This document shows, piece after piece, positions 2,492-10,958 of a stretch of DNA of 64,000 bases. Origin of the DNA: a virus; the IMG/VR virus record IMGVR_UViG_3300020190_000032, positions 1-64,000 of that record; one strand, written 5' to 3'. The position numbers were made by a program, and so were the translations under genes. Below the pieces are notes generated by a model that searched no databases, was not told the DNA's origin, and saw nothing but the letters and a program-made list of their open reading frames with translations. Numbering within the stretch: the first letter of the stretch is position 1; every line of letters starts with the position of its first letter.

Positions 2492-2576
2492 CGTAAATAA
2501 GTTAATAGTTCTTTAAGAATTGAGGTAAACTGTATGAGTCCGAAAGGACTTGTACTTTTTGGTTTTTGTTTATCTC

Positions 2577-3656
2577 ATGACTGCTACTATTGCTCGTCAG
2601 CAACCAGTAAGTCAATGGGAGTCATTTTGTAACTGGGTTACGAGTACTTCAAATCGTCTTTATGTGGGATGGTTTGGGGCTTTAATGATTCCTTGCTTGT
2701 TGGCTGCGACCACTTGCTTTATCCTTGCGTTCGTTGCTGCCCCTCCGGTAGACATCGATGGCATTCGTGAGCCCGTTGCTGGTTCGTTGCTTTATGGCAA
2801 CAATATTATCAGTGGTGCTATTGTACCCAGTAGCAATGCTATTGGTTTACATTTTTATCCAATTTGGGAAGCCTCGACGTTAGAAGAGTGGCTTTATAAT
2901 GGTGGTCCATATCAATTGGTTGTATTTCATTTTCTGATTGGTGTTTTTGCGTATGCTGGTCGGGAATGGGAGCTTAGTTACCGATTGGGTATGCGTCCTT
3001 GGATTTTTGTTGCCTATCTCGCACCCGTTGCTGCTGCTGCTGCAGTGTTCCTTGTGTATCCATTTGGGCAGGGTTCCTTCTCTGATGGTATGCCTCTTGG
3101 CATTTCAGGAACATTTAATTTCATGCTTGTTTTCCAGGCGGAACATAATATCCTCATGCACCCCTTCCATATGCTTGGGGTGGCTGGTGTATTTGGGGGT
3201 TCTTTGTTCTCTGCTATGCATGGATCTTTGGTCACAAGTAGTCTTGTTCGGGAAACGAGTGAGGAAGTAAGTCAAAATTATGGTTATAAGTTTGGCCAAG
3301 AGGAAGAAACCTACAACATTGTTGCAGCACATGGCTACTTCGGACGACTTATTTTCCAGTACGCATCCTTTAACAATAGCCGTAGCCTTCATTTTTTTCT
3401 GGCTGCTTGGCCTGTTATTGGTATTTGGTTCACTAGTCTTGGCGTTGCTACGATGGCCTTTAATCTTAATGGGTTTAATTTTAATCAATCTATTATTGAT
3501 GATCAAGGCCGTGTTATCAACACTTGGGCTGATGTCCTCAACAGAGCAAACTTGGGATTTGAAGTCATGCATGAACGCAATGCACATAACTTCCCCCTCG
3601 ACCTCGCTGCCGTTGATGCAACGAATATTGCTCTTATAGCGCCGAGCGTTGGCTGA
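2577..3656 (+). CDS. psbA: Photosystem II D1 protein
   Basis: [52 protein letters not shown]; TyrZ and Mn ligands intact; Glu at position 130; no intron; start MTATIARQ at 2577. Confidence 0.99.
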
Positions 3657-4071: not shown

Positions 4072-4270
4072 AGTCATTGATACTCATCGTTGAAGATTCA
4101 AGGAGGCGTGTGATGACGGTGCGTTTATCGTCATCGCATAGCTCTCCTGTTGATGTCCATGCAAGGCATGCGGGATTGGGGTCTTCGGGCTGATGCATGA
4201 GTCCTTCGGTTGATGCCCCACGTTAGGACATGACCACAGGCTCGCAAGGTTTCCTTTGGGATCATTTCCA
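4072..4270 (+). ncRNA. Candidate structured non-coding RNA of unknown family
   Basis: About 350-nt gap without a convincing ORF; long hairpin 4101-4148 whose G-U pairs favour the plus strand; multi-stem domain 4153-4231; TTGACA at 4045-4050. Confidence 0.5.
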
Positions 4271-6833: not shown

Positions 6834-7064
6834 ATGAAAATGAAAAAGCTTGATTATGGTCTTGGATTGCTTACAGGCTTTGCTCTTGGAAGTCTTTTCC
6901 TTCTGTTCCCATCCTTCTTGGAGGCTTTCAAACCACCCCAGAAAGGGGTGGAGTCGCCCCGTTTTGAAGTGGTTGATAATTACAAGGGATGCGATATCGT
7001 CCGTTGGGAACCTTCGGGTTATGCTGAGTATAAATTTTTTCTCGATTGCAGGAGTCTAAAATAA
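6834..7064 (+). CDS. Small membrane-anchored protein
   Basis: N-terminal hydrophobic helix, then FEVVDNYKGCDIVRW...FLDC. Confidence 0.65.
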   Translation: MKMKKLDYGLGLLTGFALGSLFLLFPSFLEAFKPPQKGVESPRFEVVDNYKGCDIVRWEPSGYAEYKFFLDCRSLK

Positions 7065-7267: not shown

Positions 7268-7271
7268 GACA

Positions 7272-7376
7272 CGTTCATTCGCTGTTTTTGAATAGCGAAC
7301 GGAAGTAAGCCGACTTTTACTCGTATTCTTGATAAACGCTATTTATCAAGAATCCTGATAGCCGACTGAAGGAACG
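7272..7376 (+). promoter_or_regulatory. Glutamine riboswitch (glnA / Downstream-peptide class) with enlarged P3
   Basis: P1 CGTTC(7272-76)/GAACG(7372-76), P2 TTCGCTGTT/AATAGCGAA, junction CGGAAGTAAG and CTGAAG; lies directly before a YRG-motif DUF4278-type gene, the established context for this class. Confidence 0.8.
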
Positions 7377-7406
7377 CTCTTTAACCCTCGTTAAGGAGAT
7401 TCTGTT

Positions 7407-7595
7407 ATGTCGATTGCGACATATCGCGGTGTCAAGTATGACACTGACGTGCCCAAAAAAGAGTATGAGCAATGGTGGAATAAGATTCACCATGATGCCT
7501 CGCGGCATCTCATGTATCGCGGACGGGATTACCGTCCGTGTCAAACCAGCAAAGTCGTAGCATCTGCTACAATTTCGTTGCTGGAGGAACCATGA
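7407..7595 (+). CDS. DUF4278-type protein
   Basis: ATYRGVKYD and LMYRGRDY motifs; SD AAGGAG upstream. Confidence 0.8.
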   Translation: MSIATYRGVKYDTDVPKKEYEQWWNKIHHDASRHLMYRGRDYRPCQTSKVVASATISLLEEP

Positions 7596-7732
7596 CTACA
7601 CTCGCTCTGATTCAAGCACAACTCAAAAAACAGCAAAAGATCGGAAATTTTCCGTACTTGCGCTGGAAGCTGGCACAGGAGAAGGCAAATGCCATTACTA
7701 AAGCGATGGGAGAGGCCATCAGAAGGGCCTAA
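7592..7732 (+). CDS. Small hypothetical protein (MTTLALIQAQLKKQQK...)
   Basis: SD GGAGG; ATGA overlap with the DUF4278-type gene. Confidence 0.55.
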   Translation: MTTLALIQAQLKKQQKIGNFPYLRWKLAQEKANAITKAMGEAIRRA

Positions 7733-7838
7733 ACGCAACGATAAAAGCCGTCAGGCATCAGCGCGTCTAAGGCAAATCAAGAAGGCCACAAAGGCCCAAA
7801 TGAAGCGGCTCCGGGAACGGGGCCGTTTTTCTTTTTGA
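7689..7838 (+). CDS. Small basic protein (49 aa, not in ORF track)
   Basis: MPLLKRWERPSEGPKRNDKSRQASARLRQIKKATKAQMKRLRERGRFSF. Confidence 0.45.
   Translation: MPLLKRWERPSEGPKRNDKSRQASARLRQIKKATKAQMKRLRERGRFSF
7805..7836 (+). terminator. Intrinsic terminator
   Basis: GCGGCTCCG-GGAA-CGGGGCCGT followed by TTTTCTTTTT. Confidence 0.7.
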
Positions 7839-7839
7839 A

Positions 7840-7907
7840 GGGCACTTCCGGGAATCGAACCCAGCATTCTAGGCTGTCTGCCTAACGTGTTCCTACACCA
7901 AAGCGCC
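7840..7907 (-). tRNA. Non-canonical tRNA-like RNA (nominal anticodon GAC)
   Basis: Minus strand: GGCGCTT TG GTGT-AGGA-ACAC G TTAGG-CAGACAG-CCTAG AATG CTGGG-TTCGATT-CCCGG AAGTGCC C; all four stems pair, canonical T-loop, but 4-nt D-loop, A at position 33 and no encoded CCA. Confidence 0.65.
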
Positions 7908-7909
7908 AG

Positions 7910-8111
7910 AGGCCCCCATGTTTGAGCTTCGCACTGAGAGGCTTTGGGGGACTGCAGGAGGCGATCAACTCCCCTGGCCTACCGAAATAGGACTTCGTAC
8001 ACAAACCAAGTATTAGAGGACTTGATTTGGGATAGATGACTGAGGCGTGGGTATGCACCGACAATCGGGCTGGCGAACCAGGCGTAACGACCCAGAAGCC
8101 TCAGCTCTATC
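7910..8111 (-). ncRNA. Candidate multi-stem structured RNA upstream of the tRNA-like element
   Basis: Nested stems GATAGA/TCTATC, GCTGAGGC/GCCTCAGT, TGGGT/ACCCA enclosing CTGG-TTCG-CCAG and CCGA-TTG-TCGG; further hairpins at 8002-8029 and 7912-7991. Confidence 0.55.
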
Positions 8112-8113
8112 GA

Positions 8114-8647
8114 TTACATTATACCAAGATCTTGTAGTCGCTTGCGTACAACGTTCCACGAAATTGGGGTGTAGTTAATGTTTTCTACGCAGACGTTGAA
8201 ATATCGGAGATCTGGTAATCCTGTTTTTTCATCAGGAACAAGGCGAAAATGCAAGTGCCCGTGAATATTGGCCGAATACCGTGTTAAGTTCACTGGGTGA
8301 ACTGGTATATGAGTCAGAATTGCTCTATCAAGATAATGACATCCTCTTACGTCTTTGAAGTAAGGGAGATAATCGCTCATTTTAAAAATATCATGATTAC
8401 CACGAATTAATACCTTTGTACCATAAAGATAATCAAGACACTTTAAGCCCCTGCGAGGTATTGCAACGTCACCAAGAACATAGACTTTATCGTTTGGTGT
8501 GACGACACTGTTCCAGTTGCGAATCAGGTCATGGTTCATCTCCTCAATATCATCCCATGGTCGCAGAGGCGTGCCGTCGTCACGCAAAAATTTACACACG
8601 TTCGTGTGCCCGAAGTGCATATCGGATATCAGGAAAGTTTCTGCCAT
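8114..8647 (-). CDS. Calcineurin-like metallophosphoesterase
   Basis: All five motifs present: SDMHFGH, LGDV, GNHD, THIP, HGHLH. Confidence 0.92.
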   Translation of the reverse strand: MAETFLISDMHFGHTNVCKFLRDDGTPLRPWDDIEEMNHDLIRNWNSVVTPNDKVYVLGDVAIPRRGLKCLDYLYGTKVLIRGNHDIFKMSDYLPYFKDVRGCHYLDRAILTHIPVHPVNLTRYSANIHGHLHFRLVPDEKTGLPDLRYFNVCVENINYTPISWNVVRKRLQDLGIM

Positions 8648-8696
8648 AAGCCTATTTTACCGTTGTTGGCAATCTAGCCTAGGATTATTCTCTGGC

Positions 8697-9206
8697 ATGG
8701 CAAGTCCACTTTTAGAATTTGCAAATGCCAAGGTTAGAATTGTATCACCTGATACAGTTTCAAGGGATAATGATGGTCGTTTTGTAACAGCAGACAATAC
8801 TCATTATCTGCTCATATGTTACATGAAAAGAGTTCAATATACCGGTGTAACTTCGGGATCAAGGAAAATTCCACTAGCTTCAGAGCTTGACGGTCAGATG
8901 CTGCCAGGCGCAAGTGGGGATGAATTTTATTACAGAGGATATGCATTAGAGAAAGCTGTAATCGCAAGCGATGATCCCTGGATTCAAGATGAAGATGTTT
9001 CTACTTATGCATTCATGCCTCTTCTTGGGAACGAAGATTTCCTAAGGCCCCAGTCAGAAGTGTTGTTTACATTTGGCAGCCAGGAGCCTATGAGAGCTGT
9101 TATTCAACGCTGTAACGGTAAATTTGGCGGAACCGGTATTGATGAAATCATTTACCCTGCTATTGGCATTGAGTTTCAACTAACTGGAGCCGAAGTATTA
9201 AATTAA
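8697..9206 (+). CDS. Putative head-closure or neck protein; start MASPLLEF at 8697
   Basis: First gene of the neck/tail operon; late motif GGCAATCTA at 8668-8676. Confidence 0.55.
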   Translation: MASPLLEFANAKVRIVSPDTVSRDNDGRFVTADNTHYLLICYMKRVQYTGVTSGSRKIPLASELDGQMLPGASGDEFYYRGYALEKAVIASDDPWIQDEDVSTYAFMPLLGNEDFLRPQSEVLFTFGSQEPMRAVIQRCNGKFGGTGIDEIIYPAIGIEFQLTGAEVLN

Positions 9207-9792: not shown

Positions 9793-10386
9793 ATGAGAAC
9801 TCTTCCTTTTGTTGTAAAGCCTAAAAGGGTTTTTACCACTGTTAAGATCGGCAGGGAAGACATCGGCATCCTTGAAATCGAGAAGCGGGGTTACTTAACG
9901 GTAAGCGAAAAGGCATTTGTTGATGCCGTAATGCAAGGTGCCGATGCAGTAACCTCAGTCGTGGCCCTGGCAACACGAATTAGCAGTAAAACGGGTCATA
10001 CAACTGAAGAATGCTATACCGCAATTATGGGCGCAATCCAAGGTGATCTCACAAGTCGCTTTGCAATTAAAATTAAAGAACAGTATCCTGATGAACTGGG
10101 TACGATTCTGACGCAGATGTCAGAGTCTGTGCAGAAACGTGCCATTGCTGCAGCTACAGTTCTGATCAAATCAAGAATTGATTCTGAGTGGAGCGTGGAA
10201 GACACTCTGGAACAGGATCCTGAGCTAATTAATGCCTTTGCGGAATTTTACGGCCAAGAAGAAGCCGGCATTGCAGCAGCTTCAGAAGGGGAAGCAACTG
10301 AGCCCACAGCGGAAGAAATTGTGGGAAAGTCAACAGAGGAGAATGGGCAAGAGTCATCGAATTCGACTCAATCTTCTGGGAATTAA
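9793..10386 (+). CDS. Tail assembly chaperone (gpG-like)
   Basis: In tail operon; in-phase G-GGA-AAG slippery site at 10323-10329. Confidence 0.8.
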   Translation: MRTLPFVVKPKRVFTTVKIGREDIGILEIEKRGYLTVSEKAFVDAVMQGADAVTSVVALATRISSKTGHTTEECYTAIMGAIQGDLTSRFAIKIKEQYPDELGTILTQMSESVQKRAIAAATVLIKSRIDSEWSVEDTLEQDPELINAFAEFYGQEEAGIAAASEGEATEPTAEEIVGKSTEENGQESSNSTQSSGN

Positions 10387-10958
10387 AAGTTTTATTTCCT
10401 GGTGACTCAGAATTTACTTTTAATCGATATTGGGATCTTCCTTATCGCTATGTTCTGGATGCGTATGATTTCGCAAAGAAAGAACAGGTAAGGAATTGGC
10501 ACGTTCAAGAGGCACCTACAGCTCTTCTTACCTCTGTCATTGCTAACTCCAATAGAGATCCCAAGAAAAAAAGAGAACCATACAAGATGGATGATTTCTT
10601 CTTGTATCAACCTCGCGATGCAAAAAATATCCCAACTAGCGTGTATGGCGCTGCTGCGATGGAGCTTGCAGCTAAAAATCTTCTGCCTCCTTGGGCATTA
10701 TTTGTGTTTAAGGACCTTAAGGAAGCTTCTGATGGCCCACCACCACAGTTGCTTGCTTACATTGGTGAAAATGCGATGATACTTGCGCCGTTACACTACG
10801 AAGATAGAGTTAAAGGTATGGTGATAGCAACCGAGTCAGCAAGTCAAAAACGCATGACAATGACATCACCATGCGGCAGAAAAATATATGTTGAACTGCC
10901 ATTTGTTAATGGCAAGTTCTACGCACAAGAAGATGTCGAACTGCCTTTAATTAGCTAG
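10323..10958 (+). CDS. -1 frameshift extension of the tail assembly chaperone (gpGT-like)
   Basis: The -1 frame is open from 10323 (GKVNRGEWARVIEFDSIFWELK...) through the tracked ORF 10587..10958. Confidence 0.8.
   Translation, partial: GKVNRGEWARVIEFDSIFWELKVLFPGDSEFTFNRYWDLPYRYVLDAYDFAKKEQVRNWHVQEAPTALLTSVIANSNRDPKKKREPYKMDDFFLYQPRDAKNIPTSVYGAAAMELAAKNLLPPWALFVFKDLKEASDGPPPQLLAYIGENAMILAPLHYEDRVKGMVIATESASQKRMTMTSPCGRKIYVELPFVNGKFYAQEDVELPLIS

Follow-up and report, generated by a model that had tools for sequence, protein, structure and literature searches.

AbiF, also called Abi_2, is a HEPN RNase that acts as a toxin of abortive infection. To our knowledge, natural phage RNAs that mimic type III antitoxins have a single well-known example, pseudo-ToxI of phage PhiTE, which was reportedly selected in the form of escape mutants. 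In the available text of its description (PMC3475682), pseudo-ToxI is a phage RNA that resembles a host type III antitoxin, is carried by a phage lacking the toxin and is proposed to silence an abortive-infection RNase. The abiF RNA is presented, in the accessible parts of two reports, as the type III antitoxin that acts on the AbiF/Abi_2 HEPN RNase by direct binding (10.1101/2025.04.15.648962; PMC12737573), and the first of these also has complete AbiF systems carried by prophages. A Cell 2025 paper, as rendered in citing text, recently presented AbiF as the ancestor of Cas13. In a cyanophage, S-CREM1, an abiF small RNA has been annotated from a Rfam match and called probably functional, according to the available text (PMC9964418). 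Here we describe a minus-strand cassette in the first 64,000 nt of IMG/VR virus record IMGVR_UViG_3300020190_000032 (hereafter the window), in which a gene for a calcineurin-like metallophosphoesterase (PE) is followed by a modular structured RNA and a tRNA-like RNA (TLS). By a modest balance of the evidence, we favour the reading that the cassette supplies toxin-less mimics of AbiF antitoxins that are released by tRNA-processing enzymes and serve as an RNA counter-defence. Four observations form its basis: homology of the modules to leaders of host Abi_2 genes, absence of the toxin from the searched phage DNA, covariation of the RNA helices, and linkage of the parts.

The virus record behind the window comprises 84,315 bases and is rated complete. 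A psbA gene lies at 2550-3656, with a product 79-87% identical to the copies of cyanobacterial genomes (87% identity for the psbA of host genome G111), and because psbA is present the DNA is taken to be that of a cyanophage. Among plus-strand genes, a single minus-strand unit holds the PE open reading frame (ORF), an RNA region and a cloverleaf, with ~206 nt and no ORF of note between the PE gene and the cloverleaf. The earlier note on this DNA had described this order, an RNA start 2 nt after the PE stop codon and a cloverleaf abutting a terminator, and all of these parts were located as claimed: the stop codon TAA occupies 8116-8114, the first RNA module begins at G8111, ARAGORN calls the cloverleaf at 7840-7907, and a hairpin at 7802-7829 directly follows it. 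TLS loci in other viruses were sought by two pattern scans of IMG/VR that used the anticodon arm alone. The first scan gave 44 loci, 23 of them with the element by context, and the second gave 80 loci from 101 stretches reported, among which 25 scored 64.7-89.4 bits and five scored 36-46 bits with the TLS family model R1. The window, 22 first-scan loci (merged per contig), locus L077 and the 25 second-scan loci make up the 49 TLS loci used below; L002/L054, identical to L001 at the cassette, were left out.

The module closest to the TLS is a compact RNA motif of the abiF type (7912-7950, minus strand), built of a 6-bp helix P1 (CCCCCA/UGGGGG) and a 3-bp helix P2 (AGC/GCU) and carrying the conserved AAGCCUCUCA and GCUCAAAC. 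In the cmscan alignment, P1 and P2 enclose AAGCCUCU...GCUCAAA and a 3′ bulge is present, so that the two-helix fold and both strings are those of the abiF RNA family (RF03085; RCd22 of Clostridioides difficile; AbiFr of PbAbiF). RF03085 scored the motif at 36.1 bits, with E values of 1.4e-4 in 1.2 kb and 2.4e-6 over the whole phage genome, where the match is single and not tandemly repeated. Supportively, 11 related contigs pass the RF03085 cut-off directly 5′ of the TLS at 41.9-55.7 bits (L057 at 53.2 and L077 at 55.7 bits, together with L200, L235, L204, L238, L179, L185, L223, L197 and L181), and a pattern test placed an abiF-type motif directly 5′ of the TLS in 32 of the 49 loci. When five phage and five host sequences were aligned, 97.5% of the cells were paired and six of the nine pairs had changed on both sides. 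Cyanobacterial host copies are found upstream of Abi_2: one lies just upstream in a psbA-bearing genome (L142, 43.1 bits), those of L151-L153 reach 55.3 bits, no psbA having been found in their genomes, and three more host loci show the arrangement below the cut-off. In many relatives of the window phage, the P2 loop of the same abiF core contains an extra hairpin; host locus L140 has this form as well, ahead of Abi_2. Compared with the described abiF RNAs, the window copy is not followed by an Abi_2 gene, is joined to a TLS 5 nt on and is single rather than double. Beyond this motif, Rfam had nothing on 7951-8113, in a gathering scan of the whole window and at E ≤ 10 over 7600-8800. GOLLD, tmRNA and tRNA were considered as known families and gave no match to the window RNA; Rfam rows for ctRNA and MicA were dismissed as the terminator hairpin scoring at chance level.

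The first module, M1 (8031-8113, minus strand), has an outer helix GAUAG/CUAUC, a 7-bp inner helix CUGAGGC/GCCUCAG and a loop that starts with UUCUG, a layout that it shares with abiF in having an outer helix, an inner helix that ends in AGC and a loop beginning with CUCU. The inner helix was paired in 196/196 cells across 28 distinct phage sequences, and in an alignment of 22 sequences it was 100% paired, with five of seven pairs changed on both sides. A model built from phage M1 sequences only (R2) gave 46 bits on the window, which belonged to the training set, and found one M1 match there with no tandem repeat. Among host genomes, R2 matched 1/151 genomes sampled from the phylum and 3/151 genomes of the picocyanobacterial family of G111 (G111, G523 and G457, at 55.9-56.9 bits), and every one of these host matches lies 134 nt upstream of an Abi_2 domain on the same strand. 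Three of the six Abi_2 genes of the family thus have an M1 leader; two more (G522 and G446) have abiF-type motifs of 30.7 and 33.1 bits 119 nt upstream, and the sixth is broken. Judged by sequence, M1 resembles a second leader RNA type of picocyanobacterial Abi_2 genes, and the window carries one look-alike of each of the two leader types seen in this likely host family. A blastn comparison of host Abi_2 upstream regions with phage RNA regions returned abiF and M1 matches only. In G111 itself (L154, G111:C42, 300-2560), the M1-led Abi_2 gene sits among small ORFs that by eye resemble toxin-antitoxin pairs, with neighbours that look RelE-like and like ribbon-helix-helix and HTH types.

Over the cyanobacterial phylum, Abi_2 exceeded the Pfam cut-off in 32/401 sampled genomes. 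By the same Pfam family, no Abi_2 was found in the genome of the window's phage or in five related phage genomes (5/6 rated complete), and a tblastn search with four host Abi_2 proteins found none in the 49 TLS loci (549 kb). The phage abiF-type RNA accordingly does not stand upstream of an abiF/Abi_2 gene, and this absence of the toxin is central to the decoy reading: because the phage itself has no such toxin, the mimics would silence the AbiF of the host. Like pseudo-ToxI, the cassette brings an RNA resembling a host antitoxin into a toxin-less phage and would have the same effect of silencing an abortive-infection RNase. It differs in that its proposed target is the HEPN RNase AbiF and not ToxN, that it has two different units, hence two mimic types per transcript, instead of tandem repeats, that a tRNA-like 3′ handle and a linked PE are added, and that it is fixed in a natural phage lineage.

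The junction between the abiF-type motif and the TLS recurs in cultured phages. In the window, the spacer (7908-7911, minus strand) together with C7912 forms a 5-nt stretch, CCUCU, that separates P1 from the TLS 5′ end. The 5-nt spacer is UCACU before the TLS of L057 and L077 and also before real tRNAs in S-CREM1 and S-SZBM1, two cultured cyanomyoviruses of Synechococcus sp. CB0101, where an abiF motif (52.2 and 55.7 bits, respectively) is followed by UCACU and then by a real tRNA-Gly or tRNA-Ala; the host abiF copies are trailed by UUACU. S-SZBM1 has in addition a weak M1 match (31.6 bits) ahead of its abiF motif, and no PE homologue was found within 2.5 kb of the abiF-tRNA unit in either phage. 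This arrangement suggests that an RNase P cut at the 5′ end of the tRNA or TLS may give the mimic a defined 3′ end. S-CREM1 thus carries the same motif, in a cyanophage of Synechococcus and 5 nt before a tRNA, but there a real tRNA-Gly lies within a myovirus tRNA array, whereas the window has a non-decoding TLS beside a PE; the available text of the S-CREM1 account (PMC9964418) mentions no decoy role, tRNA junction or phosphoesterase. Other RNAs of phage tRNA arrays are comparable in position, since in S-CREM1 wcaG, manA and abiF each stand just before a tRNA, and L005 has GOLLD in a 17-tRNA array with a PE homologue. In contrast, manA, wcaG and GOLLD match no RNA of the window, which has one non-decoding TLS and no array. 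The GOLLD RNA of L005 (107-568, 213.8 bits) encloses a tRNA-Arg, and the PE homologue of that array is 55% identical to the window PE.

The TLS itself (7840-7907, minus strand, 68 nt) was called by ARAGORN as tRNA-Val(gac). It has a 7-bp acceptor stem, a 4-bp D stem with the 4-nt loop AGGA, a canonical T arm and the anticodon loop CAGACAG with A33; the discriminator is C and CCA is absent. The four-armed cloverleaf is supported by the ARAGORN call and by the covariation of 21 pairs. Over 23 matches (18 distinct), 93.3% of the cells were paired and 11 of the 21 pairs had changed on both sides; 0/500 shuffles were as good and slid controls reached at most 52.5%. Properties of a normal tRNA are lacking: the Rfam tRNA model RF00005 gave no match on 7840-7907 at E ≤ 10, all 20 aligned TLS have A33 in place of U33, and the D-loop is not an ordinary one. 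A33 and the short D-loop are conserved across the 23 aligned matches, and because of these two features the TLS cannot decode. With R1, the window TLS scored 84.2 bits, whereas real tRNAs scored 13-38 bits; among 151 cyanobacterial genomes searched, no family-level match was found, and the best host matches were tRNA-Gly(UCC) at 41-43 bits. The TLS is a distinct, phage-only RNA family supported by covariation. We also considered whether it is a real tRNA or a copy of a host RNA, which the lack of a tRNA-model match and of a family-level match in those genomes rules out, and whether it is a prophage attachment site, which was dropped because the cloverleaf is complete, covarying and placed in lytic-type genomes; no integrase search was made.

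The only other Rfam model touching the TLS is mascRNA-menRNA (RF01684), at 22.9 bits on 7841-7907 and 22.4-26.9 bits in relatives. As in mascRNA/MALAT1, a tRNA-like fold stands at the 3′ end of a longer noncoding RNA, but the score is far under the cut-off of 42.5 bits and the family is eukaryotic, so that the resemblance extends to the working principle alone. Another type of tRNA-like RNA, scoring 36-46 bits with R1, was seen in L212 (3292-3367, minus strand), L211, L237, L203 and L234; it has the anticodon arm GGCAGAUAGCC in common with the TLS and differs in the D and T arms. Separately, a 93-nt tRNA-shaped module with the T arm GCAGGUUCGAUACCUGC, called tRNA-Phe by ARAGORN, directly follows the PE stop in L004 (3509-3601) and occurs also in L003 and L018.

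Conservation of this kind bears on a view of the cassette as a functionless relic, that is, leftovers of a phage-borne AbiF superinfection-exclusion system minus its toxin, joined to a decaying tRNA gene. Such an origin would fit the report, in its accessible part, that prophages can carry complete AbiF systems (10.1101/2025.04.15.648962), and would fit the resemblance of the TLS to tRNA-Gly above all. However, compensatory changes keep the helices while the PE diverges down to ~43% identity among relatives, the unusual A33 and short D-loop of the TLS are themselves conserved, and the toxin is present in 0/49 loci and 0/6 genomes searched. We consider decay without function very improbable.

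The PE gene (8114-8647, minus strand) encodes 177 aa with intact motifs of a calcineurin-like metallophosphoesterase. The protein passes Pfam PF00149 (Metallophos; 22.4 bits, cut-off 21.5) and matches PHROG 547 'phosphoesterase' (E 7.7e-49), its metal-binding motifs D9/H11, G59-D60, G83-N84-H85-D86 and H129-G130-H131-x-H133 are invariant across 15 PE homologues, and its AlphaFold2 model has a pLDDT of 90.7. Both the profile search and Foldseek gave 1xm7 from Aquifex, a protein of unknown function, as the nearest solved relative. In the profile search of the PDB at E ≤ 0.01, 1xm7, a phosphohydrolase and SacC were the only matches, and the Foldseek ranking listed 1xm7, LpxH, MJ0936-type proteins, YfcE and others, all of which share the general fold. 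Phosphoesterases that heal RNA ends include the phosphatase of Clostridium thermocellum Pnkp and lambda phosphatase; the known RNA-healing enzymes did not turn up in that PDB search. For PdeM (TIGR04123), the PE scored 28.7 bits, below the cut-off of 150. Since the nearest structure is without known function, RNA-end healing by the PE is a guess. Homologues are present in 2,060/50,697 GenBank phage records; GenBank phages contained no DNA similar to window 7600-8700, nor any similar to an RNA of the loci labelled type B.

A PE homologue stands beside the TLS on the same strand in 47/49 loci, upstream in 12 as in the window and downstream in 35 at gaps of 11-674 nt; at the two loci without it, the sequence extends just 315 and 279 bases past the element. 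Co-occurrence of the parts, on which the earlier note had staked its idea, is therefore seen, as is covariation of the structures. The linkage also fits a counter-defence centred on the tRNA-like RNA, in which the TLS would be bait for, or an inhibitor of, a host nuclease attacking tRNAs at the anticodon loop or the 3′ end, the PE would heal the cyclic-phosphate ends and the upstream modules would be accessory. In its favour, the TLS and PE stay together in two gene orders, L001 and L002 retain these two alone, and the best-conserved part of the TLS is its anticodon arm, GGCA(C/G)A(U/C)AGCC, which is seen again in the other tRNA-like family and, as a fragment, in S-SZBM1. Distant PE homologues among real tRNA genes (L005, L012, L061, L063, L067, L070, L075 and L076) point the same way, as does the tRNA anticodon cleavage by Cas13a, a related HEPN enzyme, as rendered in text citing Jain et al. 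2024. Yet the closest structure has no known function and RNA-healing phosphoesterases were not among the profile matches, many PE homologues lie without a nearby tRNA or TLS (L006-L011, S-CBS4 and BUCT-ZZ01, as well as MW202697 without a TLS), and L212 combines its tRNA-like RNA with an abiF-type motif, there an extended one just ahead of it, with no PE in its 9.6 kb of sequence. We regard this tRNA-centred explanation as rather unlikely, and it can coexist with the antitoxin-mimic reading. A combination of the two, a three-part anti-HEPN system in which the M1 and abiF mimics would sponge AbiF, the anticodon arm would bait or inhibit the nuclease and the PE would heal the cut RNA, seems to us decidedly unlikely; if true, the TLS and PE would be a functional RNA-enzyme pair of an undescribed kind. 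The tRNA-centred explanation is that of the earlier note, which had proposed substitute tRNAs or decoys against anticodon nucleases together with end repair. The data point elsewhere, as the identifiable modules are look-alikes of AbiF/Abi_2 antitoxins; what fits the evidence is its broader idea of a counter-defence by RNA decoy and of a noncoding RNA processed at its tRNA-like end.

The RNA of close relatives varies by entire modules, from none to about nine. Between PE and TLS there is no module in L001/L002 (PE 82% identical to that of the window), ~200 nt in L004 (69%) and ~550 nt in L003 (69%), where pieces of the window RNA recur in the same order. One of these is module M2 (8002-8024, minus strand), the hairpin CAAGUCCUCUAAUACUUGG followed by UUUG, which is identical to L003 at 23/23 nt and is found also in L183. 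Module M3 (7951-7999, minus strand) consists of AAGUCC, a hairpin, GGCC and another hairpin; in eight aligned phage sequences 88.8% of its cells were paired and covariation was weak. M3 was considered as a third mimic and rejected, given this weak covariation and matches of its model R3 in 88/151 genomes that were all ≤26.8 bits and scattered, which we attribute to noise, given the G+C-rich hairpins and the rough calibration of the model. In L183 (PE 76% identical), a bare hairpin CCCCUC-AAAAC-GAGGGG at 4105-4119 replaces the abiF-type module and looks like an inner deletion, and in L226 (PE 80% identical) M1 abuts the TLS directly. Further modules shared among phages stand upstream of the abiF-type module in L023, L032, L039, L057, L077, L179 and others, including a pseudoknot-like CUCCAUUGCUCUGUCGAUGGAGAGCAGC, UUCCCGCUCUGC...GCAUCGGGC and GAGCCCUCGACCCAUUUGGCAAGCUCGACGGAC, several of which contain CUCUG like M1 and abiF.

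Positions of the RNAs relative to genes raise the further option that modules and TLS act in phage gene regulation, as cis or trans regulators or punctuation of the PE operon with no anti-defence role, determining where mRNAs end and how stable they are, like the tRNAs of mitochondrial transcripts. The TLS lies 11-14 nt ahead of the PE start in 10 loci, an ORF of 64-69 aa starts 0-4 nt after the TLS in nine loci in the manner of a near-leaderless mRNA, and the window RNA begins immediately after the PE stop. This option would, however, leave unexplained that two modules closely copy host Abi_2 leaders, with host M1 found only before Abi_2, that the abiF-tRNA unit exists in myoviruses with no PE nearby, and that close relatives vary so widely in module content; we judge it a distinctly doubtful account. 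The ORF in question (MARYRIV..., WFWWE motif) is conserved, belongs to nine type-B loci (L026 at 6856-7047, L040, L023, L032, L039, L058, L021, L027 and L077) and is not present in the window; it looks like a message freed by tRNA-type 3′ processing.

Under the antitoxin-mimic reading, we infer transcription, processing, AbiF binding and any role of the PE as follows. A promoter in the end of the PE gene, with read-through from PE, would yield a ~270-nt transcript of separately folded modules. An extended -10 promoter-like box, TGGTATAAT, can be read at 8118-8126 (minus strand) within the last PE codons, and a TGnTATAAT/TATAGT/TATACT box stands ahead of the first RNA module also in L001, L003, L057, L077, L023 and L183, where the reading frames differ. 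The box was not called by a simple promoter scan, which requires both hexamers; from it we predict that transcription of the cassette RNA probably begins separately, near G8111. At the other end, the G+C-rich terminator-like hairpin at 7802-7829 (12 pairs, 7 of them G-C) is followed by TTTTTCTTTTT on the plus strand, with a poor T run on the minus strand; it terminates the convergent plus-strand genes and directly adjoins the minus-strand unit at its end. In the transcript, M1 as the first and the abiF-type module as the last would mimic the two kinds of leader/antitoxin RNA found before picocyanobacterial AbiF toxins. These phage RNAs would bind host AbiF and keep silent what infection would otherwise set free, following the logic of pseudo-ToxI. 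The TLS retains the acceptor and T arms recognised by RNase P and RNase Z and would most likely be a processing handle that sets the 3′ end of the antitoxin mimic 5 nt after helix P1. The PE, co-inherited with the TLS, may as one possibility heal 2′,3′-cyclic-phosphate ends left by HEPN cleavage.

Several results weigh against this reading. The RF03085 score of the window falls 0.9 bit short of the gathering score of 37, and few genomes of the likely host family, that of G111, have Abi_2 (6/151). For M2 and M3, we found no counterpart. When 7830-8116 was folded alone, the z score was -1.52 and 15/200 shuffles equalled it; the nested stems described in the earlier note are upheld by covariation in relatives and not by the fold of the window alone, and since that single-sequence fold is no better than chance, they rest on the comparison with relatives. 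The conservation of the anticodon arm counts against the handle view because it would be superfluous in an element serving only as an RNase P handle, and an RNase P cut would leave the mimic with a 3′-OH end. Finally, the strict link of TLS and PE is left unexplained by the decoy model, and L001 and L002 have these two elements with no antitoxin-like module.

The surroundings of the cassette contain further features. On the plus strand, a 235-aa ORF at 8499-9206, without a Pfam or PHROG family match, overlaps the PE 5′ end by 149 nt, and the actual start of this ORF probably lies farther downstream. At 7270-7380 on the plus strand, a glutamine riboswitch (RF01739, 40.5 bits), whose second stem bears a 56-nt insertion, precedes a 62-aa DUF4278-like ORF (7407-7595, plus strand); the pair adjoins the cassette also in L001, L002 and L183, and Glutamine-II riboswitches occur near it in L032, L058, L039, L023, L181 and L197. 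L183, a close relative of the window phage, additionally has a group I intron at 10289-10525 (minus strand, 80.8 bits).

In the literature searched, supplementary files being outside the search, we found no abiF RNA joined to a tRNA or TLS, no link with a PE and no phage decoy of AbiF; the sole mention of abiF in a cyanophage was the Rfam listing for S-CREM1 in the available text of PMC9964418. New here are the TLS model with its covariation, the linkage of the TLS to PE in either gene order, its similarity to tRNA-Gly, and the match between two modules of the window and the two kinds of Abi_2 leader in a single host family. That a non-decoding TLS is so strictly paired with a small PE is a readily testable association that lacks an explanation. 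If the antitoxin-mimic reading is true, M1 would be a second, so far undescribed class of Abi_2 leader RNA in picocyanobacteria, and phages would be shown to co-opt tRNA processing for the maturation of such RNAs. Lake cyanophages of a widespread family would then carry toxin-less copies of both AbiF leader types of their hosts as natural RNA inhibitors of one HEPN nuclease family.

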